A DNA stretch of 44,016 nt from a phage, in the sequence record PZ379180.1, one strand, 5' to 3'. Each line of letters begins with the position of its first letter. Positions within the stretch are counted from its first letter, which is position 1. The notes beneath the pieces are model-generated. The model did not search any database and was not told the origin of the DNA. It worked only from the letters and a program-made list of their open reading frames with translations. The position numbers and the translations under genes are program-made. Below, piece after piece: positions 6,279-42,260 of the stretch.

Positions 6279-6299
6279 AAGGCCCCGTTATGGGGCCTT
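6279..6299 (-). terminator. intrinsic terminator (minus-strand T-run)
   Basis: AAGGCCCC-gttat-GGGGCCTT hairpin; on the minus strand followed by TTTTATCATT. Confidence 0.55.
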
Positions 6300-6302
6300 A
6301 GC

Positions 6303-6596
6303 CTACTTTCCTGCCTCATGCGCAATTCGCGCCTCAGCGATAGAAAGATATTCCGAATCCATCTCAATTCCTATAAAGCGGAAACCTTCGCGCATGGCTG
6401 CTTTACCGGTGCTGCCACTCCCCATAAACGGGTCGAGAACCACTCCACCTGGTGGCGTCACAAGGCGGCAAAGGTACGCCATGAGGTCGGTTGGCTTGAC
6501 GGTGGGATGATTATTGGCCTCTCCTCTGTCCTTGCGGCTCGTTTTAGCGCAGTAGAAGAACCGGGCGGCGCTCTTGTCTGTCTCTACGCGCGGCAC
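6303..6596 (-). CDS. DNA N6-adenine methyltransferase, C-terminal fragment
   Basis: FFYCAK, HPTVKP and DPFMGSGST motifs; its frame is open upstream to about 6752 and reads VPANLIHDGSDEV. Confidence 0.8.
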   Translation of the reverse strand: MPRVETDKSAARFFYCAKTSRKDRGEANNHPTVKPTDLMAYLCRLVTPPGGVVLDPFMGSGSTGKAAMREGFRFIGIEMDSEYLSIAEARIAHEAGK

Positions 6597-7465
6597 ATAC
6601 TGCTTACCGTTGTCACTGGTGGCGCCGTAGCAGTTAGCCCGCGAGCGCTGGCTATCATCGCTTTTTCCCTGCTGACCTTTGGCTTCAGGGAAAGCGGTAA
6701 TAACCTCATCGCTTCCGTCATGAATAAGATTGGCTGGTACCAGCGTCCCAATTCATTGCCAGATTGAGGGCCACATGCGTAGGTTGATTCACTTTTTGCG
6801 GCGTGAAGCTGTCCGCCTTTGATGTTGTCTTTATAAGGTGTTCTTCTGGCCCAAACATCCCCCACCACCCGACACCCATCAATATTAATCGCACCTGTCC
6901 CCCACTCCAGCACGTTAGCCGCGACCGTACCTTTGAACGGCTTGCGGGCTACGGTGATTGGCTCAAGTGCTGGTTTGAGTGCGGTGCCCCAGCCGTTCCA
7001 CTGGCGGGCGGATTCGGTGGCGGGGGAGGCGATGTCAAGCCCTTTGCCGTACTCGCCATAGACGCCACCCGTCGTTGCGGTTGCCTCGCTGCGCCCCACC
7101 ACTTCACGCTCTGCGCCTGCCGCCTTGTCGATAGCCTTGCTCACATCCATACTTTTCGGAAAACCACTACCATATACCCATGCAATCATGTCACGAATCT
7201 CAAAACCAGCGTCCTCAATCCGCACAGCCATGCGGTGCTGGGTGCGAGTGCCTGCGAAGGCCAGTAGGTGACCACCTGGCTTCAGGACACGCAGGCATTC
7301 CTCCCAGATTGCCTGTTCTGGCACATCGTAATCCCACTTTTTACCCATAAACGACAGGCCATAAGGCGGGTCGGTGACTATGCTATCTACGGAATTGTCG
7401 GGAATACCCTTTAATACCTCAAGGCAATTCCCTAGATGAATATTGTATGGTTTAGTATAAGCCAT
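6584..7465 (-). CDS. DNA N6-adenine methyltransferase, N-terminal fragment
   Basis: DPPY motif near N-terminus, GTGAINIDGCRV, GRW; last 50 residues of the ORF are out-of-frame read-through; AGGAGG RBS. Confidence 0.85.
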   Translation of the reverse strand: MAYTKPYNIHLGNCLEVLKGIPDNSVDSIVTDPPYGLSFMGKKWDYDVPEQAIWEECLRVLKPGGHLLAFAGTRTQHRMAVRIEDAGFEIRDMIAWVYGSGFPKSMDVSKAIDKAAGAEREVVGRSEATATTGGVYGEYGKGLDIASPATESARQWNGWGTALKPALEPITVARKPFKGTVAANVLEWGTGAINIDGCRVVGDVWARRTPYKDNIKGGQLHAAKSESTYACGPQSGNELGRWYQPILFMTEAMRLLPLSLKPKVSREKAMIASARGLTATAPPVTTVSSMCRA

Positions 7466-7491
7466 TTTCAGCCTCCTGTTTAAGTTAACTG

Positions 7492-7505
7492 AATAGTACC
7501 CTATT
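7492..7505. promoter_or_regulatory. palindromic operator-like site AATAG-N4-CTATT
   Basis: GAATAGtaccCTATTATGTTGG; member of a 6-7 copy family. Confidence 0.5.
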
Positions 7506-7573
7506 ATGTTGGTGTCCGCAAACTATTTGTTCACGTATTCCAGTTATTCCGCTCAATTGTAAATGTCGGAATA

Positions 7574-7616
7574 AACTATTCGAATAGTTGACTTTTCACT
7601 GAAAATGTGCTAAGCT
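7574..7616 (+). promoter_or_regulatory. sigma70-like promoter with adjacent 16-bp perfect palindrome
   Basis: AACTATTCGAATAGTT 7574-7589 overlapping -35 TTGACT 7588-7593; 17-nt spacer; TGcTAAGCT extended -10 at 7608-7616. Confidence 0.5.
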
Positions 7617-7796
7617 CCACCTGAGCTTGTGAAGTATGAACAAGCGACCGCGGCGCGGGCAGGTAACGGAGCGGGACGTAAGTCCTGAGTGTAGTTACGC
7701 TGACGCGTTCGGAAGGGCCATACTCTATTGCTTGTGTAAAAAGTAACTGGTTTACTGAGATTACGCCGTTTCTATGTTTAAATGATAAGGACTAGC

Positions 7797-7820
7797 GCCC
7801 CGCTTTAAGGCGGGGCTTTA
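7797..7820 (+). terminator. intrinsic terminator upstream of late genes
   Basis: GCCCCGC-tttaag-GCGGGGC hairpin followed by TTTACTT. Confidence 0.5.
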
Positions 7821-7840
7821 CTTATCGAGAAAGGAGAAAC

Positions 7841-8227
7841 ATGAATCTTAAAGCAACCGTCGTAGCAGGAGCATGTTTCATCATCCTGGCTTACACACAC
7901 GGCATTTATCAGTACCGCAGCGGCTGGAGCGAAGGCCGGGCGAATCTCGTTTCGCAGCAACAGCAGAAAGCGCAGGCTGAGTTAGCGAAGAAAACACAAC
8001 GGCAGCAGCAGGACGAATCAAAGGCCGCCGCCGCCGACAACGAAGGCAAGACGAAATCAGAGGTGATTACCCGTGAAGTCGTTAAGTACATTAAAACGCC
8101 TGGTCGCAGCGGGTGCACTTTTGACCCTGAGCGCGTGCAGCTCAAGTCCCGCGCCGTCGCAAACGCTAATTCCATTACCGGATACGACGATGATGCAGCC
8201 TCCGTGCAAACTGGCAGCGCCAAGTAG
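7841..8227 (+). CDS. i-spanin (Rz-like)
   Basis: N-terminal TM helix, Q/A/K-rich coiled-coil region; AAGGAG RBS; overlapped by lipoprotein ORF in another frame. Confidence 0.6.
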   Translation: MNLKATVVAGACFIILAYTHGIYQYRSGWSEGRANLVSQQQQKAQAELAKKTQRQQQDESKAAAADNEGKTKSEVITREVVKYIKTPGRSGCTFDPERVQLKSRAVANANSITGYDDDAASVQTGSAK

Positions 8228-8336
8228 CGATGCTGACGAGGATTTGGCTATAGACGTTCAGAACGCCGAATGCGTGCGGCAACTGCGTCTGAAAGTATTC
8301 CAGTTGCAGGATTATGTGAGGAATATTCTGGAATAG
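8073..8336 (+). CDS. o-spanin (Rz1-like lipoprotein)
   Basis: Lipobox LTLSAC after signal peptide, Pro-rich mature part, starts inside i-spanin gene in another frame; GTG start with AGAGGTGA RBS. Confidence 0.6.
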   Translation: MKSLSTLKRLVAAGALLTLSACSSSPAPSQTLIPLPDTTMMQPPCKLAAPSSDADEDLAIDVQNAECVRQLRLKVFQLQDYVRNILE

Positions 8337-8418
8337 TTGCCTTGCATGTTGGAATAATTTATTCTTGACATGTAAATCCGGGTGGCCCGGGTTCCGACGT
8401 CCAGGGGACATACTGACT

Positions 8419-9120
8419 ATGAATCGTTTTTTACGTTATCCGTTCCAGGAAAAAGCTGGGGCAGAAGATAAAGCTGGTGGCGGTGACGCGCCGAAAATGT
8501 TCACCGCTGAAGAAGTTCAGGCGCTGATTGAGAAAGAAGTTGCCGGGCTTAAGGCTAATCAGGAAGCATTGTTGGCGGAGAAGAAAGAAGCCGCTCGCAA
8601 AGCAAAAGAGGCCGAAGAAGAACGGCAGCGCGCGCACCAGGAGGCGTTAAAAGCCGCTGGTAAGATGGATGAGTTCGAAAAGACGATTCGTAGCCAGTAT
8701 GACCCGGTGTTAGCCGAGAAAGACGGTCGCATCTCCAGAATGGCAGAGCGTATCCTCGGCAGCGAACGTAAAGCGGTGCTAGGCTCTTTCGCGGGTGACT
8801 TTATTACCCCAGAAGCAGTGGACATTCTTGCGCCGTTCGTTAAGACTGAGTTCGAAGGCGATGATGTGGTTACTAAGTTTGTTGGTGCAGACGGTAACGT
8901 AATCACGACTGACCCGGAACAGTTCCGCAAATACCTGCGCGAACACAAGGCGTTTTCGCATTTGATCAAAGCAAATGCAGCTTCCGGCGGCGGGGCTTCC
9001 GGTAGCAAAGGCGGCGGGGCCGCACCAGCGTTTAAAGACATGAGTGAAGCAGAGCGTTTAGCCCTGTATAAATCGAACCCTGCCGAATTTGAACGGCAAC
9101 TTAAAGCCCTGAGGAAATAA
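8419..9120 (+). CDS. scaffolding protein
   Basis: Coiled-coil rich (QEALLAEKKEAARKAKEAEEERQ), directly upstream of major capsid gene; ATG 8419 with AGGGGA RBS (track ORF starts 8365). Confidence 0.6.
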   Translation: MNRFLRYPFQEKAGAEDKAGGGDAPKMFTAEEVQALIEKEVAGLKANQEALLAEKKEAARKAKEAEEERQRAHQEALKAAGKMDEFEKTIRSQYDPVLAEKDGRISRMAERILGSERKAVLGSFAGDFITPEAVDILAPFVKTEFEGDDVVTKFVGADGNVITTDPEQFRKYLREHKAFSHLIKANAASGGGASGSKGGGAAPAFKDMSEAERLALYKSNPAEFERQLKALRK

Positions 9121-9122
9121 TA

Positions 9123-10172
9123 ATGGCAATTACCACTATCGGCGATATCGTAACTGGCAACATCCTGGTCCTGGCGTCTTATATGACCGAGGACCCGGTA
9201 GAAAAAACCGCGTTCTTCCAGTCTGGTATTCTGACCCCGACCCCGTACGCTGCCGAGATTGCCCGCGGCCCGTCCAACGTCGCTAATATTCCGTTCTGGA
9301 AAGCGATTGATACCTCTATCGAGCCTAACTACTCGAACGATGTATACCAGGACATCGCCACCCCGCGTAACGTGCAGACCGGTGAGATGATGGCCCGCGT
9401 TGCATACCTGAACGAAGGTTTCGGTCAGGCGGATTTGACTGTCGAACTGACCAGCCAGAACCCGCTGCAATCCGTAGCGTCCCGTCTGGATAACTTCTGG
9501 CAGCGCCAGGCACAACGCCGTCTGATTGCTACCGCGCTCGGTCTGTACAACGACAACGTAGCTGCTAACGATGCTTACCACGAGCAGAACGACATGGTTA
9601 TCGACGTGTCTGCTACTCTGGGCTTCGATGCGGGCGCGTTCATCGACGCTACCCAGACTATGGGTGATGCGCTGATGGGCAACGGCGGTGAAGTGCTGGG
9701 TGCTATCGCGATGCATAGCTTCGTTTATGCGCAGGCACGTAAGCAGCAGCTTATCGACTTCATCCGTGGCGCGGACAACAACACCATGTTCGCCACCTAC
9801 CAGGGCTACCGCGTGATTGTTGACGACAGCATGACCGTAGTCGGCACTGGCCCGACCCGTAAGTTCATCTCCATCATCTTCGGCAACGGCGCTATCGGTT
9901 ACGGTGAAGGTTCTCCGTCCAACCCGCTGGAATACGAGCGCGAAGCGTCCCGCGGCAACGGCGGCGGCGTTGAAACCCTGTGGACCCGTAAGACCTGGTT
10001 GCTACATCCGTTTGGTTACAGCTTCACCAGTGCAGTAATCACTGGCAACGGCACCGAGACTACCCCGCGCTCTGCTTCCTGGCAGGACCTGGCGAACGCC
10101 TCCAACTGGAACCGTGTGGTTGACCGTAAGCACGTACCGATTGCCTTCCTGGTAACTGGTGACGGTGCTTAA
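9123..10172 (+). CDS. major capsid protein
   Basis: 349 aa ORF after scaffold, strong RBS GAGGAAA, followed by strong terminator. Confidence 0.8.
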   Translation: MAITTIGDIVTGNILVLASYMTEDPVEKTAFFQSGILTPTPYAAEIARGPSNVANIPFWKAIDTSIEPNYSNDVYQDIATPRNVQTGEMMARVAYLNEGFGQADLTVELTSQNPLQSVASRLDNFWQRQAQRRLIATALGLYNDNVAANDAYHEQNDMVIDVSATLGFDAGAFIDATQTMGDALMGNGGEVLGAIAMHSFVYAQARKQQLIDFIRGADNNTMFATYQGYRVIVDDSMTVVGTGPTRKFISIIFGNGAIGYGEGSPSNPLEYEREASRGNGGGVETLWTRKTWLLHPFGYSFTSAVITGNGTETTPRSASWQDLANASNWNRVVDRKHVPIAFLVTGDGA

Positions 10173-10188
10173 GGTTAAGATATAATCG

Positions 10189-10212
10189 AGAGGGACTTCG
10201 GTCCCTCTTTTC
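10189..10212 (+). terminator. intrinsic terminator
   Basis: AGAGGGAC-ttcg-GTCCCTCT hairpin followed by TTTTC. Confidence 0.55.
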
Positions 10213-10231
10213 ATTTACTAAGAGGTAAATT

Positions 10232-10531
10232 ATGGCTAAGACCGGAAAAGGCTTGCCTCGCAGCCTTCAGAATGTCGACTTCGGCGACTTTGACATCCCA
10301 GTAACGCCGGCTACTACCAGCGTAGTTGGTGGGGTTAAAAAGTCAGCTACTGTAGCCGCCCCCGCGGCCATTACCGCTGCCGCCGGGTCGCAGTCCGCTG
10401 CGGACCCGACTAAGACCGAGTTCGATGCCCTTGTAGCCGAGTACAACAAACTTCGAACTGATGTAACCGCGCTGCGCACTACCGTAGCAAATCTGTTGAC
10501 TGCGCTTAAAAATGCAGGAACTGTAAGCTAA
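10232..10531 (+). CDS. hypothetical protein (possible head decoration)
   Basis: Ala/Thr-rich 99 aa ORF with AAGAGG RBS. Confidence 0.4.
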   Translation: MAKTGKGLPRSLQNVDFGDFDIPVTPATTSVVGGVKKSATVAAPAAITAAAGSQSAADPTKTEFDALVAEYNKLRTDVTALRTTVANLLTALKNAGTVS

Positions 10532-10543
10532 AGGAGCTTAAAA

Positions 10544-10894
10544 ATGGTTGATGTAATCAAACGTCGTATTACTGGTGTTTCTGATGATTCTCCTGCCGAT
10601 GGTCAGGTTGAAATCGATATGGCGAATATCTCGCCCGCATCTTTTTCTACCGCACTTGCCGCTACCACTACCAAGTCTACGGGGCAGACGATGACTCTTA
10701 CCGTAGCCGTAACTGGCGGTCTGGCCCCGTACACATACCAGTGGTACAAAGATAACAACGCTATCCCAGGCGCTACCGCCGCCACCTACGAGAAAACTTC
10801 GCTCGCTACTACCGATTCCGGTACGTATAAAGTGGTTGTCCACGATGTATATGGTAATATTATCTCCAGCAGCACCGTAGCAACTGTATCTTAA
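10544..10894 (+). CDS. Ig-like domain protein
   Basis: TLTVAVTGGLAPYTYQWYKDNNAI...GTYKVVVHDVYG Ig-like segment; AAGGAG RBS. Confidence 0.5.
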   Translation: MVDVIKRRITGVSDDSPADGQVEIDMANISPASFSTALAATTTKSTGQTMTLTVAVTGGLAPYTYQWYKDNNAIPGATAATYEKTSLATTDSGTYKVVVHDVYGNIISSSTVATVS

Positions 10895-10930
10895 TACCGC
10901 GGCCCTTCGGGGCCGTAATAAGGAAAGGTC

Positions 10931-11110
10931 ATGGCAGATAATTATGTAATCCGCGAAAAGTACACCCACGTTGATATTGTAGACGGTCAGGTGATGCCTG
11001 TTCGCGGTGTGGTAGAAGCGGATGAACTGGTTGCGACTCAACCGGACAACGAAGAAGCGCACAACAACGGCGGTGGTGCTAAGCGTCGTCGCCGTAAATC
11101 AGAGGAATAA
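10931..11110 (+). CDS. hypothetical protein (59 aa)
   Basis: ATG 10931 with AAGGAAAGG RBS, basic C-terminus; below track cutoff. Confidence 0.35.
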   Translation: MADNYVIREKYTHVDIVDGQVMPVRGVVEADELVATQPDNEEAHNNGGGAKRRRRKSEE

Positions 11111-11113
11111 TTT

Positions 11114-11626
11114 ATGCCGCTAATCGTGGAAGACGGGTCGATAGTACCTAACGCCGACAGTTACATTAGTCTGGCTGACGCCCGCGCGTTAGCGGCTAAT
11201 TACGGTCTTGAGTTACCCGCAGACGATACTGCCGCAGAGGTGGCACTGCGCAACGGTGCTACTTATGTCGGGCTTGCAGAACCTCAGATGTGTAGCTACC
11301 GCGTATCCGCCGAGCAGTCCCTGGCGTACCCACGTACGGGAACAACACTAAACGGCTTCACCGTAGCTGATAATGTTATCCCACCGCAGTTAATCCGGGC
11401 GCAGGTAATCGCCGCTGTTACGTATGGAGCGGGCACTGATGTTCGGGCTAACTCCGATGGACGTTCCGTGCAGACCGAGCGTGTAGAGGGTGCGGTAACA
11501 GTTACCTACTTCAACAACGGCAACAGCGGGGCCACAACCGCGATTACCGCCGCTGACGACGCCTTACGCCCGTTACTGTGTGGTGGTCTTAACAACGGCT
11601 TCTCATTTAATGTGTACCGGGGTTAA
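11114..11626 (+). CDS. hypothetical structural protein
   Basis: 170 aa ORF in head-tail joining region, RBS AGAGGAA. Confidence 0.4.
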   Translation: MPLIVEDGSIVPNADSYISLADARALAANYGLELPADDTAAEVALRNGATYVGLAEPQMCSYRVSAEQSLAYPRTGTTLNGFTVADNVIPPQLIRAQVIAAVTYGAGTDVRANSDGRSVQTERVEGAVTVTYFNNGNSGATTAITAADDALRPLLCGGLNNGFSFNVYRG

Positions 11627-11628
11627 AA

Positions 11629-12243
11629 ATGGCGAAGACTAAATCAGAGATATTCACGCTAATCGGTTCCGAGCTACCGGACAACACGACCGGACTTATT
11701 ACGCCTGCGAAGTTGCGCGGGGTATTAACCCAGATGGCTGACTCACCTATTTACGCCACTCCGGGTGTTAAAGAGGTTGAAGTTCTCCGTGCCGCGTCTA
11801 CGGTAACCCAAGCGCCTACCGCGGTAGATACGGCATTGCAGTTAACTTTCGGTGCAGCTCAGGGTAGTGCATCCGACCCGGTAATGATTAATGCTGCGGG
11901 GCTGGTTACATTCAACACCGCCGGTAACTACGCCGTTCGCATCAAGTTACAGGCAGGCCGCACAGGTGCCAGCGGAACGTCAATCCTGCTATCACGTATT
12001 TTAGTAAACGGCGCTCAGTACGGCTCACCTGCCGCCACGAAACTGGTAAGCGCGGACACCACAATCCCGATTGAATCTCGCGTTGTTATTAACCCAACAG
12101 CAGGCCAGACGTTTGCCGTTCAGATTATGCGGGATAGCGTCGGAACTAACTTCGGTGGTGTATACCCGCAAGCGGCTACCGTAACCGCATGGGGTACAGC
12201 CCCGTCCGCGTTGCTGGTTATTTCGAGACTGGAGGCCGCCTGA
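11629..12243 (+). CDS. hypothetical structural protein
   Basis: 204 aa ORF, tightly packed in structural operon. Confidence 0.4.
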   Translation: MAKTKSEIFTLIGSELPDNTTGLITPAKLRGVLTQMADSPIYATPGVKEVEVLRAASTVTQAPTAVDTALQLTFGAAQGSASDPVMINAAGLVTFNTAGNYAVRIKLQAGRTGASGTSILLSRILVNGAQYGSPAATKLVSADTTIPIESRVVINPTAGQTFAVQIMRDSVGTNFGGVYPQAATVTAWGTAPSALLVISRLEAA

Positions 12244-12470
12244 TGAGCACCGCTTTCAGTAAACGTATGCAAGGCGTGGGTACACGCCTGCTAACCAAAT
12301 TCGGCAGCACGGTATCTCTGGTTCGTGCTGGCTCGAAAGTGTGGGATGAAGTTCTCGGTGAGTACGTCTGGTCTGCGGATGAAGTGTTGCCGTTGAAAGC
12401 GGTTCCGGTTCCGGTTAATGCTGGACTGGTAAACGGTTCGACGATTCAGGCGTACCGACATGATTGTTAA
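12243..12470 (+). CDS. head-tail adaptor, N-terminal fragment
   Basis: ATG 12243 (ATGA overlap); frame breaks near 12440-12467. Confidence 0.45.
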   Translation: MSTAFSKRMQGVGTRLLTKFGSTVSLVRAGSKVWDEVLGEYVWSADEVLPLKAVPVPVNAGLVNGSTIQAYRHDC

Positions 12471-12603
12471 AGCCGATTACAGCGTCGTTCCGAAGATGGG
12501 AGACAAGGTTCAGTTTAGCGGCGCGCAATGGTCTATCGTAGCTATCGAGACGAAGATGGTTAACGATGATGTCGTGGCATATTTTATTCAGGTGAGAAAA
12601 TGA
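12460..12603 (+). CDS. head-tail adaptor, C-terminal fragment
   Basis: +1 frame ORF, KMGDKVQFSGAQWSIVAIE resembles the C-terminal motif of head-tail adaptors. Confidence 0.4.
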   Translation: MIVKADYSVVPKMGDKVQFSGAQWSIVAIETKMVNDDVVAYFIQVRK

Positions 12604-12995
12604 GTTTCGCGCTTGATGTCTCTAAGTTCGTGGAAAAGGCGAAGAAGAACCCTGAGAAGGTGATGCGTCAGGTGTCTATCAAGCTGTTTTCCGCTATTAT
12701 AAAGGCGAGTCCGGTAGATACTGGTCGGTTTCGCATGAACTGGATGGCATCTGGTGGTACTCCTGCTTCCGGGATTACGGATGCTACGGATAAATCAGGA
12801 AACACAGCAACCGGAAACGCTACAAGTTTCGTGCTGAAAGCCACCGACTGGCATGAGTTCACGCTGACAAATAACCTGCCGTATGCACAACGGCTGGAGT
12901 ATGGCTGGTCGCAACAGGCCCCGCAAGGATTCGTCAGGACTAACGTGTCCCGCTTCCAGCAACTCATTAACGAAGAAGCTAGCAAGGTGAGATGA
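12600..12995 (+). CDS. head-tail joining protein (HK97 gp10-like)
   Basis: 131 aa, VDTGRFRMNW motif region typical of gp10-like proteins. Confidence 0.5.
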   Translation: MSFALDVSKFVEKAKKNPEKVMRQVSIKLFSAIIKASPVDTGRFRMNWMASGGTPASGITDATDKSGNTATGNATSFVLKATDWHEFTLTNNLPYAQRLEYGWSQQAPQGFVRTNVSRFQQLINEEASKVR

Positions 12996-13408
12996 TGGGC
13001 TACTTTGAGGACTTAACAAAAGCGTTTGATGTGCCGCTGGTAGCCTTCGGAACCACCAACGGCATCAAGGTAGCGCTTGAAAACATCGACGCGCCGACGT
13101 CAACAGATACGCCGTATCTGGCAAGTTACATGTTGCTGGCGGATACCGAGCAGGCTGACTTATTCTTCACGGAACAACGCGCCGGTGTCTATCAGATAGA
13201 CATTAACTACGCATCGGTGAAAGGTAGCGCGCCAATCAATAAAATGGCAGACTTACTTAACACGGCGTTTAAATCAGGTAAGGCATTTTCGCGTAACGAC
13301 ATCTGCGCCGAGGTTCAATCGGTTAGCCTGGGGCCGCTGATTGTAGAAAACGGATGGGCCAAACGACCATTGTCAATTAACTTTATTGCATTCACCAAGA
13401 GGCTGTGA
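12992..13408 (+). CDS. tail completion/terminator protein (putative)
   Basis: 138 aa ORF between gp10-like and major tail genes. Confidence 0.4.
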   Translation: MMGYFEDLTKAFDVPLVAFGTTNGIKVALENIDAPTSTDTPYLASYMLLADTEQADLFFTEQRAGVYQIDINYASVKGSAPINKMADLLNTAFKSGKAFSRNDICAEVQSVSLGPLIVENGWAKRPLSINFIAFTKRL

Positions 13409-14577
13409 ATATGGCTACAACTCCTTTTAAGGGCGCGAATACCGCGCAATTCTATGTGGCGGAAACTACCCTGGGCGTAACACCGGCTAACCCTGTCTGG
13501 TCGCCGTTGCGTAACACTGGCGGTGTTCCTGCCGTAACCCGCGATGCGCTGACTTCCAACGAACTAGACGGCAGCCGTGAAACTACATCCATCCGAACCG
13601 GTAACAAACAGGTTAGCGGGGAGTACGCCATCGAACTTAGCTCTCGTAGCCAGGATGATTTCCTTGCGGGAGCGATGACTTCTACGTGGCAAGCTGGGGT
13701 AGAGATTACTGGCGCCGAAATTACGGTCGCCCCAGCAGGTAAAACATTCACCCGCGCTGCCGGTAGCTTCATTACTGACGGTGTAGAAGTTGGCGACCTT
13801 ATTGCGTTCACCGACTTAACCGGCGACAACGCAAAACCGTTTATCGTGACCGCGGTTTCCGCTCTGGTAGTTACGGGCGCAGGTATTCAGCACACGCTGA
13901 CAGCAGAGAAAGTAACCACTGACGCAAAAACTGGCGACAAGCTGGAAACCAGTAACGCGTGTAAGACGTTCTCCATCCTGACGTGGTTCAAGGGCCAGTG
14001 TGGTAACCCGGACGCGTACATGCTGACCAAAGGTGTGGAAATCTCTGGCTTTACCGTAGAGCAGGCGGTTAACGCCATGGTCACCGGCAGCTTCCCGTTC
14101 ATCGGCCTGAGTCAGGAGATTCTTACCGCGCCGCCGTCTGGCTCTGATTTCTCTCAGGTTACGTTCACCGATGAGCCGTTCTCGTCGGTAGATGTGTCGG
14201 TGTTCGATGGCTCCACGCCGTTGCGTTGCGATACTCTCACCATCACCAACGACAACGGAGCTTCCGCGCAGTTCGAACTCGGTAACAGTAGCGTGGCGTT
14301 CGTCGAACGTGGACGCGCAGCTAACACATTCTCTATCTCTGGCAAGCTGTACGACATGGCGATGATTCAGAAGTTTATCAACGAGCAGCAGGTAGAGATT
14401 AACTCTATTCTGGCAGGGGTAAACGGGGCTATGTCTTTCAGTTTGAAACGTGCAGAGCTTACGGCGGTTACACCTGAGATTGGTGGGCCTGAGTCAATCA
14501 CTCAGTCCATTGAAGGCCAGGCTACCGGCAATCAGTACCAGTCGTCTATCGTAATTCAACGTATCACCTACGCATAA
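13405..14577 (+). CDS. major tail protein
   Basis: 390 aa ORF preceding chaperone/tape-measure genes, followed by terminator. Confidence 0.65.
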   Translation: MNMATTPFKGANTAQFYVAETTLGVTPANPVWSPLRNTGGVPAVTRDALTSNELDGSRETTSIRTGNKQVSGEYAIELSSRSQDDFLAGAMTSTWQAGVEITGAEITVAPAGKTFTRAAGSFITDGVEVGDLIAFTDLTGDNAKPFIVTAVSALVVTGAGIQHTLTAEKVTTDAKTGDKLETSNACKTFSILTWFKGQCGNPDAYMLTKGVEISGFTVEQAVNAMVTGSFPFIGLSQEILTAPPSGSDFSQVTFTDEPFSSVDVSVFDGSTPLRCDTLTITNDNGASAQFELGNSSVAFVERGRAANTFSISGKLYDMAMIQKFINEQQVEINSILAGVNGAMSFSLKRAELTAVTPEIGGPESITQSIEGQATGNQYQSSIVIQRITYA

Positions 14578-14581
14578 AACT

Positions 14582-14605
14582 AAGGCCCCTTTCGGGGCCT
14601 TTTTC
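14582..14605. terminator. intrinsic terminator between convergent genes
   Basis: AAGGCCCC-tttc-GGGGCCTT hairpin followed by TTTTT. Confidence 0.6.
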
Positions 14606-17034: not shown

Positions 17035-17063
17035 TTGGTGTAAGTGAATAGTACGCTATTATA
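17035..17063 (+). promoter_or_regulatory. promoter-like element with AATAG-N4-CTATT palindrome
   Basis: TTGGTG-16-TATTAT with palindrome 17047-17060 in spacer; minus strand reads TATAAT at 17058-17063. Confidence 0.45.
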
Positions 17064-17183
17064 TTGGGGAGTGCAAGTAGTGTGCTAGAATAATTTTGCG
17101 CCTAGTGTCGCACACGAAAAGCGGGTGGTTCCCGTCTGGCGCATTTCCTTTAACCAGTAACCTCTTAACCAAAGGATTAAAGA

Positions 17184-17600
17184 ATGAAACTTTCTGATTT
17201 TTATTACGAAGCGGAAGCCGAAAAGGGCGCACGTATGCCGATACCGCTAAAAGACGGTACTGATTCCGGGGAATGGCTTAATGTTGTTTCTCCTGAGGCG
17301 GACGTTGCCGTTAAGGCTATGCGCGCGTTCACCCTTGCATACCGGGCAGTATTAGGGAAATTAAAACCGCTTCGTGATAAGTGCGAAGAGATGAAAGATT
17401 TCTCTGAATACAACCTGAAGATGGAAGACGCGGCGACGGACCTTAACCGTCAGTTAGCGATTGAATTGGTTAACGGGTGGAGCCTTGACGACGAATTCAA
17501 TAAAGAGAATCTGAACACACTCCTGACGCAATATAAACGACTCGCGGAACTTGTTGTTGTGTTTCATAACGAACAACTGCACCAGCTACAGGAAAAGTAG
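17184..17600 (+). CDS. tail assembly chaperone (G-like)
   Basis: 138 aa acidic ORF immediately upstream of tape measure gene; -1 frame open 17570-17767. Confidence 0.5.
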   Translation: MKLSDFYYEAEAEKGARMPIPLKDGTDSGEWLNVVSPEADVAVKAMRAFTLAYRAVLGKLKPLRDKCEEMKDFSEYNLKMEDAATDLNRQLAIELVNGWSLDDEFNKENLNTLLTQYKRLAELVVVFHNEQLHQLQEK

Positions 17601-26378: not shown

Positions 26379-26402
26379 AAGGCCCCGTTTGGGGCCTTTT
26401 CT
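26379..26402 (+). terminator. intrinsic terminator
   Basis: AAGGCCCC-gttt-GGGGCCTT hairpin followed by TTTTCTC. Confidence 0.6.
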
Positions 26403-36277: not shown

Positions 36278-36307
36278 ACTATAATAGCGAACTATTCATG
36301 ATGTCAA
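36278..36307 (-). promoter_or_regulatory. leftward promoter with AATAG-N4-CTATT palindrome
   Basis: Minus strand TTGACA-18-TATAGT, palindrome 36283-36296 in spacer. Confidence 0.5.
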
Positions 36308-36371
36308 TGGGCTTTTCTAAAATAATTAATATGGTACTATTCACACATCAACTGACTAAGGAGTAATTGAC

Positions 36372-39553: not shown

Positions 39554-39769
39554 GTATACATTGCGAATAATGGGAAATCAAACATAATCGCACCTATTGA
39601 CATTATGAAAATATTCGTTTAAGGTGCTTCTATATCTTAGTTACTTTGATTCCTGTTCACCTTGTAATACCCGCTTGAAACGCAGCTGCGCCAAAGCGCA
39701 AGCGAAGTGTTAAGCGGCAGATTATTGAACATATGAATTATCGTAACTTTCCTTCCTTAGTATCTTAGG

Positions 39770-39782
39770 TTGCCGTGGGCAA
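39770..39782. repeat. 13-bp palindromic site TTGCCGTGGGCAA (copy 1)
   Basis: Inverted half-sites TTGCC/GGCAA; identical copy 71 bp downstream. Confidence 0.5.
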
Positions 39783-39840
39783 GCTCCATTCTCATCGGCA
39801 GCATATCTCTTAAATACCTGATAATTAAAAGTTTCTATAG

Positions 39841-39853
39841 TTGCCGTGGGCAA
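39841..39853. repeat. 13-bp palindromic site TTGCCGTGGGCAA (copy 2)
   Basis: Identical to copy 1, both preceded by TAG and followed by G; half-site TTGCCGTGG again at 40441-40449. Confidence 0.5.
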
Positions 39854-39877
39854 GGTAGAGAGTACTTCACTCCGCTG

Positions 39878-39897
39878 GGGTGGGCTAACGCCCACCC
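39878..39897. other. GC-rich hairpin
   Basis: GGGTGGGC-taac-GCCCACCC, no adjacent T-run. Confidence 0.35.
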
Positions 39898-39972
39898 ACT
39901 GCGTTGCGTACTCTTTTAAGAAACGAAAGAATCACAACGGCAACGTAACTATTCTCTTGCACACCCCAACAT

Positions 39973-39986
39973 AATAGGATACTATT
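39973..39986. promoter_or_regulatory. palindromic operator-like site AATAG-N4-CTATT
   Basis: Minus strand reads GAATAGtatcCTATTATGTTGGGG, near-identical to copy at 7491. Confidence 0.45.
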
Positions 39987-40020
39987 CACTTATCGAAACG
40001 AGACAGAGGAGTGAGGGTTA

Positions 40021-41791: not shown

Positions 41792-41970
41792 TGGTGCATA
41801 GATACGAAAACGACCACGGCGATATGTTTCAGGCCGCGGGAGGGCGCTGGGTCCTATACGAAGACTACGCGGAGCTGGCGCGTAAACTGCGCGAGCTTGC
41901 TAAGCAGGTAGTAAACAGTCCGTGCGACTGGAAGACGGATGAATTAGCGCGCGAGATTCTGGACCTATGA
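41791..41970 (+). CDS. hypothetical protein (paralog B)
   Basis: ATG 41791 overlapping upstream stop; MVHRY...GRWVLYEDY. Confidence 0.45.
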   Translation: MVHRYENDHGDMFQAAGGRWVLYEDYAELARKLRELAKQVVNSPCDWKTDELAREILDL

Positions 41971-42260
41971 GCCTTGCAACTGACATCCTGAAACGGAGCG
42001 GCCTTGCGCCGCTGTCGCCGAGAGCGAACACACGAATATACAAGCGCCGCCGTAATGCGCTGTACCCTGAGATTCAGGCCAGACGCAAAGCAGTCCGCGC
42101 CTGCGGATTCAAGAACGGGAAGGCTGTGAATCTCGGTGAGTTTAAAACAAAGGAACGTGCGGCTATCGCTAATCGGTTATTTAATTACTGGAAATCGCTG
42201 GGTTATGAAGATATTCCGACGAAACCACAGAGACGACAATACATCTGGCGTCATAAATAA
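41967..42260 (+). CDS. AP2-like DNA-binding domain protein (putative)
   Basis: GKAVNLGEFKTKERAAIA segment resembles AP2 domain. Confidence 0.35.
   Translation: MSLATDILKRSGLAPLSPRANTRIYKRRRNALYPEIQARRKAVRACGFKNGKAVNLGEFKTKERAAIANRLFNYWKSLGYEDIPTKPQRRQYIWRHK

Follow-up and report, generated by a model that had tools for sequence, protein, structure and literature searches.

A covariation-supported RNA fold fills positions 7623-7730 at the head of the late genes of a Kagunavirus, and is the main feature that an earlier sequence-only reading of this DNA had overlooked. The RNA domain is about 108 nt long, begins at about the first transcribed base, and consists of a 5' hairpin (P1), one long irregular hairpin (P2-P3-P4) and a purine-rich tail. 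It is part of a conserved non-coding leader of about 200 bases that probably governs the entry of host RNA polymerase, or of the message, into the late genes. Virulent phages that lack an RNA polymerase of their own have to direct the host enzyme along a timed programme. To our knowledge, nothing is known of how the Guernseyvirinae steer the host polymerase, and no paper on the transcription or non-coding RNAs of these phages was found in the literature searched.

A non-coding unit opens the late block

The window, i.e. the whole stretch of 44,016 nucleotides that was analysed (PZ379180.1), is the genome of a Kagunavirus (Guernseyvirinae), a phage of E. coli. Its head, neck and tail-tube genes form a late block on the plus strand (7841-14577), with the spanin, scaffold and capsid genes in the front part. 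The first gene encodes the i-spanin; its Shine-Dalgarno sequence AAGGAG and its start codon (7831-7843, plus strand, with the ATG at 7841) open the block. The leader's upstream neighbour in Kagunaviruses is an accessory gene on the minus strand. The late transcription unit, which carries the head, neck and tail-tube genes, starts with the region 7588-7840, and this region is non-coding for protein. Sequence and annotation bear out its earlier description as a promoter-to-hairpin non-coding unit directly 5' of the spanin, scaffold and capsid genes, and the coordinates given there for the promoter, the hairpin and a 36-codon ORF are correct on the sequence.

In a promoter scan of the window, no other promoter candidate was found for the late block (7841-14577). 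The block sits between two bidirectional terminators, one closing the upstream plus-strand operon (6279-6299) and one closing the late block itself (14582-14601), and a further terminator lies inside it, 3' of the capsid gene (10188-10209). Because of this arrangement, and because only 14 nt, with no room for a promoter, separate the stem of the last leader hairpin (P5, see below) from the spanin ATG, polymerase must pass P5 to reach the late genes, and read-through is obligatory.

The 36-codon ORF (7636-7746, plus strand) is not a gene, in line with the previous statement that the unit contains no convincing ORF: its start codon, frame and ribosome-binding site are all unconserved or absent. 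It has no Shine-Dalgarno sequence, and its ATG, held in the loop of P1, falls in an 11-nt segment that is missing from Jerseyviruses; the ATG is also absent from the 76-type second copies described below. Indels in the middle of the ORF break the reading frame and have their counterparts on the opposite sides of helices. Two mini-ORFs, UUG-CUU-GUG-UAA after the tail and AUG-UUU-AAA-UGA in the linker, were rejected, having no Shine-Dalgarno sequence and not being conserved. Several records annotate the 36-codon ORF as a hypothetical protein. Annotations that assign part of the leader in this way should be corrected.

The late promoter and its upstream block

The predicted promoter, P_L (7588-7616, plus strand), is of the sigma-70 extended -10 type, with TTGACT at 7588-7593, a 17-nt spacer ending in TGC (T7608 and G7609), and TAAGCT at 7611-7616. 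It had been called a good promoter, which is correct with regard to its conservation and not with regard to its -10 hexamer. The hexamer is poor, matching the consensus at only three of six positions, and for this reason P_L is missing from a generic promoter scan. However, the form T[TA]GACT, exactly 17 nt, TGn and TA[AC]GCT is kept in 41 different family sequence contexts, among which the base following TG varies, and three more family sequences differ by a single base change in the -35 hexamer. The pattern TTGAC[AT]-N17-TAAGNT occurs at exactly two sites in the 44-kb window, and both head a long conserved non-coding leader. Support for P_L is therefore far above chance despite the poor -10. 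The promoter spacing alone predicts a transcription start at about G7623.

A conserved block (7536-7589, not assigned to a strand) abuts the promoter. It contains TATTCC at 7536-7541 and again at 7545-7550, the inverted form GGAATA at 7568-7573, and a perfect 16-bp palindrome, AACTATTCGAATAGTT, found by self-BLAST at 7574-7589 and centred near -41.5 (taking 7623 as +1). The block is common to Kagunavirus, Jerseyvirus and Cornellvirus-type leaders, is absent from the second copies, and is probably an operator or activator region.

The core RNA fold

P1 (7625-7645, plus strand, as are all elements of the fold) pairs GCUUGU at 7625-7630 with ACAAGC at 7640-7645. It is 99% paired across the alignment, with four of its six pairs changed on both sides, and the corresponding place in Jerseyvirus is taken by a hairpin whose sequence differs (ACGCU UUC AGCGU). 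The core domain (7648-7712) is one long irregular hairpin. In P2, 7648-7650 and 7652-7656 pair with 7705-7712, leaving C7651 bulged and placing a tandem G.U where G7652 and G7653 face U7709 and U7708. A single pair, G7658-C7704, lies between P2 and P3; P3 (7660-7667 with 7694-7702) comes next, a conserved AG.GUA lies in an internal loop, and the hairpin closes with P4 (7673-7677 with 7682-7686). The near-invariant tail that follows, AAGGGCC-N6-UAUUG (7713-7730), is predicted to be single-stranded.

The fold was derived by hand and built into a model (R1), with which 58 matches were aligned and 31 distinct sequences scored. Among these 31 sequences, 97% of pair cells hold a pair, compared to 29-39% when the partners are slid, and 16 of 28 pairs show changes on both sides. 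None of 500 shuffles equalled the observed values on four of five covariation measures. Pair 7654:7707, for example, occurs as C-G, U-A or A-U. A minimum-energy fold of the single window sequence also recovers P2-P4. Since the G.U pairs are invariant, the plus-strand RNA is the molecule that folds.

P2 and the tail are almost invariant, while the other helices covary. UUCGGAAGGGCC and UAUUG are invariant or nearly so across the Kagunavirus, Jerseyvirus and second-copy classes, and CGGAAGGG is retained even in the rearranged Cornellvirus-type leader. A pseudoknot joining the P1 loop (AGUAUG) to the tail (CAUACU), favoured by the minimum-energy fold, was rejected on two grounds: the paired C is replaced by G, U or A with no compensating change, and a loop of this kind is lacking in Jerseyvirus.

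As judged by database searches, the fold corresponds to no described RNA family. Rfam 15 gave no match at gathering score in 7400-7950, where the best E-value was at least 1 and the hit unrelated, and ARAGORN found no tRNA or tmRNA gene in the window. There was no match to the core in 5,426 E. coli genomes, so no host homologue or prophage copy was found, nor did the phage genome hold a complementary target for the leader RNA.

Downstream of the core, the 5' strand of P1 is repeated. The direct repeat GCUUGUG (first copy 7625-7631, second copy 7730-7736, plus strand) reads GCUUGUG at both places in Kagunavirus and GCUUUCAG at both places in Jerseyvirus; the downstream one is missing from second copies. 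The AU-rich linker (7731-7783, plus strand) is very conserved in Kagunavirus and can be aligned to Jerseyvirus only in part. Its nucleotide diversity among 30 Kagunavirus sequences is 0.022. For the leader as a whole the range is 0.022-0.027. In the spanin and scaffold genes, the same comparison gives 0.05-0.10 for codon positions 1 and 2 and 0.15-0.23 for position 3. Constraint on the Kagunavirus leader is thus very strong, the leader being less variable than nearby first and second codon positions.

Second copies and relatives

Some relatives carry a second copy of the promoter and core between the HTH gene and the early operon, where it replaces another conserved promoter-plus-leader at the operon head. 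Downstream of these second copies lies a long hairpin that carries a U-run, and beyond that hairpin the early locus has a further promoter, TTGCAC-17-TACTAT. In every copy found, the core begins a few bases after the -10. Sequence comparison indicates that promoter and core travel together as a module at operon heads. It should also be noted that in some lineages of the Guernseyvirinae the leader at this position is rearranged or unrelated.

A phage-group-specific, nut-like site common to the early and late leaders was considered and rejected, as in ULINTec2 and PK1 a late linker of Kagunavirus type occurs together with an early 3' part of Jerseyvirus type. The likeness between the early and late 3' parts in the window therefore reflects recombination history and not co-variation. 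Trans pairing of GGAAGG with CCUUCC of the early leader was likewise discarded, since it amounts to 6-7 bp only and is within chance. Scans of genome and metagenome contigs with a loose pattern gave mostly chance matches in GC-rich organisms; the real matches were Kagunavirus-like only, including one mis-binned as a Bacillota MAG.

The hairpin ahead of the spanin gene

The hairpin GCCCCGCT/GGCGGGGC at 7797-7816, followed by TTTACTTATC, is listed as terminator-like in the window scan and had been described as a strong terminator. The hairpin at 7797-7820 is real and terminator-like; its strength is not borne out. It forms the upper part (GCCCCGCU/GGCGGGGC, 7797-7816) of a 43-nt stem-loop, P5 (7784-7826, plus strand), with a middle stem UAG/UUA and a lower stem GAUAAG/CUUAUC. 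The tail UUUACUUAUC pairs with the upstream GAUAAG..UAG and extends the stem, so the U-run is itself paired. P5 was folded in 32 variants; its z-score is -3.4 in the window sequence and -4.3 in a Jerseyvirus. It is 99% paired, with three pairs changed on both sides, and the folds show one more compensatory change (A-U to C-G), in the lower stem, which is out of register in the alignment.

In the tract 3' of the hairpin, Kagunavirus has UUUACUUAU, Jerseyvirus UUAGCGUAU and Cornellvirus UGUUACGAG. The Jerseyvirus hairpin ends in UUAGCGUAUA, and the version in Jerseyvirus S104 is not listed by the terminator scan; the Cornellvirus version has no U-run. By these comparisons, P5 appears to be a weak terminator that is not conserved as a terminator across the subfamily. 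Because it is a poor terminator in Jerseyvirus and Cornellvirus, and because its U-run is paired in a conserved stem, P5 may exist for another purpose, and active antitermination at P5 may be unnecessary.

Possible roles of the leader

We tentatively propose, at well under an even chance, that the leader is a cis-acting element promoting read-through without a known protein, by analogy to (and not homology with) put of phage HK022. The put RNA, a nascent two-stem structure just after the promoter, is by itself able to make E. coli RNA polymerase termination-resistant (PMC9378689). The HK022 putL and putR sites likewise are structured nascent RNAs just 3' of a sigma-70 promoter heading a long phage operon; put and the leader can both be present in two copies per genome and would both need no dedicated protein, and the long stems of put and of the core are irregular, with non-Watson-Crick G.U or G.A pairs beside a bulged base (PMC9378689). 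The put architecture, a stem-loop RNA after a sigma-70 promoter in an operon with terminators, is present here, and the resemblance is architectural only. The core measures about 108 nt compared to about 70 nt for put, and its phages are virulent Guernseyvirinae whereas put is lambdoid. Terminator suppression by put is cis-acting and works by way of the zinc-binding domain of the polymerase beta' subunit; rpoC mutations in that domain abolish it. Homology was rejected: with filters off, model R1 scored no higher than 5.6 bits (E = 2.5) on the HK022 PL/PR immunity region, and a local alignment of putL with the core scored 18, a value equalled by 96 of 500 shuffles.

In the proposed mechanism, the nascent core would fold while host RNA polymerase leaves P_L, and the P2 helix, with its bulged C and tandem G.U, and the GGAAGGGCC tail would engage the elongation complex or a host elongation factor. 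Polymerase would then pass the P5 hairpin and U-run and, later, the terminator 3' of the capsid gene. Where polymerase fails to do so, a transcript of about 200 nt with its 3' end at P5 would be left. Control of timing would be separate and would lie with the operator-like repeats 5' of the -35.

Cis read-through is consistent with the covariation-supported fold, P2-P4 of which appears in the single-sequence fold, with the coupling of promoter form and spacing to the core in 41 contexts, and with the modular occurrence of the two at the head of operons, as in the second copies that precede the early operon. Read-through is required at P5, since no promoter fits between it and the ATG, and the block also has an internal terminator. 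The leader, at a diversity of 0.022-0.027, varies less than codon positions 1 and 2; no recognised protein antiterminator is present among ten early proteins or in the annotation of the relative Bas73; and put provides a precedent for a protein-free RNA (PMC9378689). Against it, similarity to put is absent by both model R1 and alignment, and the hairpin to be bypassed has a paired U-run and is a poor terminator in Jerseyvirus and Cornellvirus. The Kagunavirus linker is as conserved as the core, which a core directed purely at polymerase does not explain, and the rearranged or unrelated leaders of some Guernseyvirinae lineages also count against it. A more specific claim, which we consider unlikely, is that nascent RNAs which alone give E. 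coli and Salmonella RNA polymerase resistance to termination evolved a second time, independently, and that the core is this second class. It would be unrelated to put, with P2 (including the tandem G.U) and the GGAAGGGCC tail binding polymerase, and would form a portable promoter-plus-RNA cassette of virulent siphoviruses that can be copied to any operon head.

At the early locus, the promoter downstream of the hairpin makes promoter, core and hairpin look like a self-contained gene, a further point against cis read-through and one expected if the unit encoded a free, abundant small RNA of about 200 nt acting in trans from its own promoter, with its 3' end at P5. The core would then be a protein-binding or decoy module, and late expression would be leakage past P5. 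The promoter together with hairpins at the 5' end and, with UUU, at the 3' end does make a gene-like unit, conservation exceeds that of coding positions over the entire length, unpaired linker included, and the invariance of P2 and the tail amid covarying helices is as expected of a recognition site. However, the linker and the 3' hairpin differ between the first copy and the second copies, so the active part common to both would be the core alone. A U-tract that could define a 3' end is missing in Jerseyvirus and Cornellvirus, and neither a complementary phage target nor a match in the E. coli genomes was found. Since the capsid operon has no other promoter candidate, the unit cannot be a small-RNA gene alone, and we regard a small RNA acting in trans as improbable.

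An element controlling the fate of the mRNA receives a similarly low weighting. Long irregular hairpins with internal loops are RNase III sites of T7, in leaders and between highly expressed genes, and 5'-terminal hairpins are known stabilisers. In the same way, P2-P4 and P5 could be RNase III sites, 5' stabilisers or sites for a translational regulator, and would determine how stable and how well translated the very highly expressed scaffold and capsid message is. P5 suits such a role: its stem of about 17 bp has internal loops and a covarying lower part, and ends 2 nt before the spanin ribosome-binding region, and the early-leader and Cornellvirus hairpins are also long stems in which the U-rich side is paired. 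The resemblance to the T7 sites is one of shape only, and leaves the near-invariance of P2 and the tail and the strict coupling of core to promoter unaccounted for. In addition, the core is also found as a module before unrelated early genes.

The sequence-only reading had likened the unit to lambda PR'-tR', and in such a model a Q-, AlpA- or N-type phage protein would load at the promoter or leader and permit passage of the terminator late in infection. Lambda PR'-6S RNA-tR', like the systems of 82Q, 21Q and Pseudomonas AlpA, does share with this region a promoter that looks constitutive, then about 200 nt of leader, a hairpin with a U-run, and late structural and lysis genes, with a short RNA as an expected by-product. 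Operator-like repeats and the 16-bp palindrome adjoin the -35, many early proteins have no known function, and a small HTH protein is encoded beside the early promoters. The analogy is not supported at several points. No Q, N or AlpA-type family was found by Pfam and PHROGs scans of ten early proteins or in the full annotation of the relative Bas73. The only HTH protein (HTH_17) has 66 residues. AlpA and 21Q use an N-terminal ring-forming part (PMC9371919), and the HTH protein was rejected as an antiterminator of this type, being too small and without that part. On inspection, the first 25 bases of the transcript contain no -10-like pause element that is conserved across sequence classes; a candidate, AAGUAU at +10 to +15, is confined to the Kagunavirus class and absent from Jerseyvirus and the 76-type second copies. 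The terminator, as described above, is not conserved. Lambda 6S RNA also has no counterpart to the conserved structured domain of about 108 nt, which points to an RNA-based function. We therefore consider a lambda-like mechanism quite unlikely.

Lambda nut/N and rrn boxA/boxB are also leader RNA signals found at more than one operon head. A nut site consists of a short boxA and a 15-nt hairpin, unlike the leader, and no N-like protein was found. A boxA (GCUCUUUA) was rejected, since the leader word ACUCUAUUG reads ACUCU, AGUCU, AAUCU, GCUAU or GCCCU in aligned tails and so varies at critical positions, and an ops element was rejected on inspection of the same tails, its critical positions also varying. 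The Rfam int-alpA RNA motif (RF02996) is present in the window at 17095-17159, in an analogous position, after a promoter-like motif and before a plus-strand late block (tail genes from 17184). It is a structured leader ending in a stem and then a U-run; its sequence and fold are unrelated to those of the leader described here.

A riboswitch-like role, in which a metabolite or a signal from the host would bind the core as its aptamer and so alter folding of the linker and P5 to tune late-gene entry, is very unlikely: the structured 5' leader, invariant junction nucleotides, variable downstream part and possible alternative pairings (linker CGCCG with the P2 5' strand, the second repeat with the P1 3' strand) would suit it, but there is no Rfam riboswitch match at E-values up to 10, the alternative pairings are short, lack covariation support and are absent from second copies, and P5 neither overlaps a ribosome-binding site nor is conserved as a terminator.

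Significance

The Guernseyvirinae are common and include phage-therapy candidates and the BASEL phages Bas70-76. Their leader offers a portable module of promoter plus RNA, with a defined fold, natural variants and invariant nucleotides that invite mutation. Should the module act on polymerase, protein-free RNA antiterminators would number just two classes, put being the first, and synthetic biology would gain a compact part. If it is instead a small RNA or a processing signal, it would still be a new RNA family, one in control of the genes that this widespread group of phages expresses most highly.

A structured RNA in the late leader

When Kagunavirus sequences are aligned with the syntenic intergenic region of Salmonella Jerseyviruses, blocks of identity lie between segments that are divergent yet complementary. 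Two invariant words, used as a pattern against IMG/VR, retrieved 47 loci carrying three classes of one RNA domain, here called the core: the Kagunavirus copy in the late leader (copy 1), the Jerseyvirus copy, and a second copy in the same contigs as copy 1. In all three classes the core starts a few bases after the −10. We derived its structure by hand, built a covariance model and searched the collected loci. The model found a single copy in the window, at 7617-7730 with 138.6 bits; scores were 81-131 bits for second copies and 41-49 bits for those of Jerseyvirus.

The fold, on the plus strand, opens with a 5'-end hairpin, P1 (7625-7630 with 7640-7645). One long irregular hairpin follows, consisting of P2 (7648-7650 and 7652-7656 with 7705-7712, with one C bulged out and two invariant G.U pairs side by side), P3 (7660-7667 with 7694-7702) and P4 (7673-7677 with 7682-7686), with a conserved AG.GUA in its internal loop; a nearly invariant tail, AAGGGCC-N6-UAUUG, occupies 7713-7730. 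Read from the opposite strand, these invariant G.U pairs would become A.C mismatches, and the folded molecule is therefore the plus-strand RNA. Among 58 matches (31 distinct sequences), standard pairs fill 97.0% of pair cells, compared with 29-39% after the 3' partners are slid by 1-3 columns, and 16 of the 28 core pairs show changes on both sides. None of 500 shuffles reached the observed values on four of five measures. This alignment was fitted to the structure and is biased in its favour; even so, given the slid controls and the effect size, a chance origin of the pairing is unlikely. With a plain MAFFT alignment as input, RNAalifold arrived independently at the outer helix with its covarying pair (C-G, U-A or A-U), and the minimum-energy fold of the window sequence alone recovered P2, P3 and P4. 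Sequence is free to change in P3 and P4 and not in P2 and the tail, a pattern suggesting that the latter two are recognised by a partner.

The core had no match in Rfam 15, even at E-values up to 10, ARAGORN found nothing, and nothing similar was found in 5,426 E. coli genomes; neither Rfam 15 nor the literature searched describes this RNA family. The sequence-only reading, a promoter followed by a terminator, had picked out a real feature of the genome but left its most important component, the structured RNA, unseen. The core is bracketed by a direct repeat of 7-8 nt. Both Kagunavirus copies of the repeat read GCUUGUG (7625-7631 and 7730-7736), and both Jerseyvirus copies, at the corresponding positions, read GCUUUCAG; in second copies of the core the downstream repeat is missing. 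The repeat may offer the 3' strand of P1 another pairing partner, provide a single factor with two sites, or be left over from earlier in the history of the element.

Promoter, 3' stem and sequence constraint

The promoter, the hairpin and the 36-codon ORF of that earlier reading were all found again, at the positions it gave. The late promoter (TTGACT, 17 nt ending in TGC, TAAGCT; 7588-7616, plus strand) is absent from a generic consensus scan of the window because its −10 matches consensus at only 3 of 6 positions. That it is a good promoter is not evident from the window sequence alone, but its form and spacing are kept in 41 different family contexts, with a −35 of T[TA]GACT, a spacer of constantly 17 nt, a constant TG whose next base varies, and a −10 of TA[AC]GCT. 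Three more family sequences have one base change in the −35 hexamer. The pattern TTGAC[AT]-N17-TAAGNT occurs at exactly two sites in the 44-kb window, 7588-7616 and, ahead of the early operon, 39597-39625. Upstream of the −35, Kagunavirus, Jerseyvirus and Cornellvirus leaders have in common two TATTCC repeats, an inverted GGAATA and a palindrome adjoining the −35. Second copies lack this operator-like block, and initiation at the late copy is probably regulated by some DNA-binding protein.

A near-palindromic motif, TGAATAGTNCNCTATTAT(G)TTGG, is also repeated in the window (7490-7512 and 17045-17067, plus strand; 39966-39988, 36327-36343 and 36281-36298, minus strand). In reverse sense, three copies read as TTGC(A/G)N-17-TACTAT promoters; the methyltransferase cassette on the minus strand is probably driven by the copy at 7490-7512, and the early genes from 40011 onwards by the copy at 39966-39988. 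The half-site GAATAG, with 9 of its 17 window occurrences intergenic, also builds the palindrome at 7574-7589.

A terminator scan does flag the hairpin at 7797-7816 as terminator-like. However, it is part of a longer stem, and the strong terminator proposed from sequence does not hold in that form. When the 57 bases immediately preceding the ribosome-binding region were folded in 32 variants, every one adopted the same extended structure. In Kagunavirus, GAUAAG/CUUAUC and UAG/UUA pairs lie beneath a GC-rich upper stem, so the presumed U-tract forms one side of a helix. Jerseyviruses build the same architecture from UAUACG/CGUAUA and UUAA/UUAG, with compensatory changes in both lower and upper stems; after the upper stem they have UUAGCGUAUA, which the same scan leaves unflagged. 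Cornellvirus-type relatives have an equivalent long hairpin followed by UGUUACGAG. Across these groups the conserved feature appears to be an RNA stem, P5 (7784-7826), ending 2 nt before the ribosome-binding region, and not a terminator, although P5 may stop part of the transcripts in the window. Elsewhere, Salmonella phage templet has an annotated putative tRNA-Ser (L003 2433-2510, minus strand) that overlaps the end of the decoration gene, at the position of a terminator hairpin 3' of that gene in Jerseyvirus relatives.

The 36-codon ORF is present in the window but lacks conservation as a gene. Its ATG lies inside an 11-nt stretch missing from Jerseyviruses, one second-copy class likewise has no such ATG, and the frame-shifting indels are the same ones by which RNA helices are adjusted on both sides. 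The core has a nucleotide diversity of 0.027 over 30 distinct Kagunavirus sequences, the linker (7731-7783) 0.022 and P5 0.023; in the spanin and scaffold genes the values are 0.05-0.10 at first and second codon positions and 0.15-0.23 at third positions. Taken whole, the leader shows the strongest conservation in the region.

Genome setting of the late leader

The 375 bases around the late leader match 181 phage records at 90-99% identity, nearly all of them E. coli Kagunaviruses and related Salmonella phages (subfamily Guernseyvirinae). In annotated relatives the leader is flanked on one side by a minus-strand accessory gene, which varies, and on the other by the genes for i-spanin, o-spanin, scaffold and major capsid protein. 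In the window this accessory gene is a DNA methyltransferase; phage Schulenburg has a sliding-clamp-like gene in its place, and Bas73 a small hypothetical one. The methyltransferase (6303-7465, minus strand) is in two overlapping ORFs, 6584-7465 with a DPPY motif and 6303-6596 with an FMGSGST motif, which suggests a frameshift (pseudogene, sequencing error or recoding).

The full Bas73 map is a single long rightward series of early small genes, lysis genes, terminase, portal, head and tail genes, broken by short minus-strand cassettes, with replication genes on the opposite strand. In the window, three near-identical bidirectional terminators, AAGGCCCC-loop-GGGGCCTT (6279-6299, 14582-14601 and 26379-26398), mark all junctions of plus-strand blocks with minus-strand cassettes. 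Since two of these sit at 6279-6299 and 14582-14601, they enclose the late block of spanin, scaffold, capsid, connector and tail-tube genes (7841-14577, plus strand), which contains an internal terminator directly 3' of the capsid gene (10188-10209). No promoter candidate other than that of the late leader was found for this block, and the interval from P5 to the spanin ATG is too short to hold one. The late genes are expressed only if the late leader is transcribed through.

Two further loci were noted. The o-spanin/scaffold intergenic stretch (8320-8439, plus strand; diversity 0.022) is as conserved as the late leader, includes a GAATAG half-site at 8331-8336, and may be a regulatory site for scaffold and capsid expression. 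A gene at the far end of the early operon, directly ahead of the holin genes (41967-42260, plus strand), encodes a very basic 97-residue protein (phrog_9632, no Pfam match) that is kept in relatives and is a candidate nucleic-acid-binding regulator.

Second copies and other leaders

About 12 Kagunavirus contigs have a second promoter-plus-core between a small HTH gene and the early operon. The window has no second copy; from 39597 to about 39822 it has another promoter (TTGACA-17-TAAGGT, with an unusual −10 of the same type as the late promoter) and a different leader of about 250 nt, within an early-operon leader region spanning 39597-39910 (plus strand). Second copies occupy this place, so the core travels with its promoter as a cassette able to replace another leader at an operon head. 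Both versions then continue with a long hairpin with a paired U-rich side and a promoter, TTGCAC-17-TACTAT. The early leader is about 72% identical across genera (Jerseyviruses), with compensatory changes in its hairpins. A long-range helix of AGUUACUU with AAGUAUCU encloses several hairpins, of which one shows compensatory changes, and is followed by a long GC-rich hairpin whose U-run is paired; this looks like another undescribed structured RNA. One second-copy element is on a 6.2-kb contig binned into a "Bacillota bacterium" MAG (L191, JAEWLW010000073.1), a Kagunavirus early region and a binning artefact.

At 17095-17159 (plus strand) the window matches the Rfam int-alpA RNA motif (36.6 bits; gathering score 35.8), directly after the promoter-like motif at 17045-17067 and directly before the tail-assembly genes at 17184. 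It holds the same leader position as the late leader, for the next late block.

Loci collected through the capsid protein include Guernseyvirinae lineages without a match to the core model. Cornellvirus-type leaders (FSL SP-031, phiEap-2, pink; L424 1535-1850, L468 150-472 and L469 150-472, before the spanin gene) retain both the upstream block and the long hairpin at the 3' end, together with a promoter reading TGGACT-17-TGA-TAACCT, and their 5' part is a different long hairpin. There the P2 and tail words appear rearranged as GCAUUCGG-GAGA-CCGCG-CGGAAGGG(U/C)C; on one reading, a GNRA loop would close the outer end of P2, with the P3-P4 arm lost. The words ACCGCG and CGGAAGGG are common to Kagunavirus, Jerseyvirus, second copies and the Cornellvirus type. 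A second group (Shemara, L436) retains only ..UCGGGGAUAGUCUAUUC.. and the 3' part, and in a third (L417 1195-1510, L422, L425) the leader found at this position is unrelated and contains five TTGCGAG repeats. By these comparisons, the leader region is mosaic across the subfamily.

Possible roles of the late leader

The single most likely mechanism, which we put forward tentatively, is action in cis on transcription elongation: by engaging the elongation complex, the nascent core would let polymerase pass P5 and later terminators. The model is the HK022 put RNA, which makes the elongation complex pass terminators (PMC9378689). The comparison is by analogy; our covariance model did not find HK022 put, and the best local alignment of the core with putL, recovered from the HK022 genome with a published primer, was not significant. 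Counting against the elongation model, P5 in relatives would terminate weakly at best, a downstream promoter of its own is present at the early locus, and the strong linker conservation is left unaccounted for.

Almost as probable is a free small RNA of about 200 nt, which is compatible with a leader role. A processing or stability element, for example one with RNase III sites, is about as likely as the small RNA, and the long stems make it plausible. The suggested analogy to lambda PR'-tR' describes the layout correctly but its mechanism is unproven: no Q, N or AlpA-type protein was found among the ten early proteins scanned or in the full Bas73 annotation, and a lambda-type protein antiterminator is unlikely. 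An AlpA/21Q mechanism (PMC9371919) was rejected, the sole HTH protein being too small. A riboswitch is quite unlikely.

Our data establish that the late leader is a non-coding, structured and strongly constrained RNA, tied to its promoter and located at operon heads. Each rightward block in these phages appears to open with a promoter and a structured leader.
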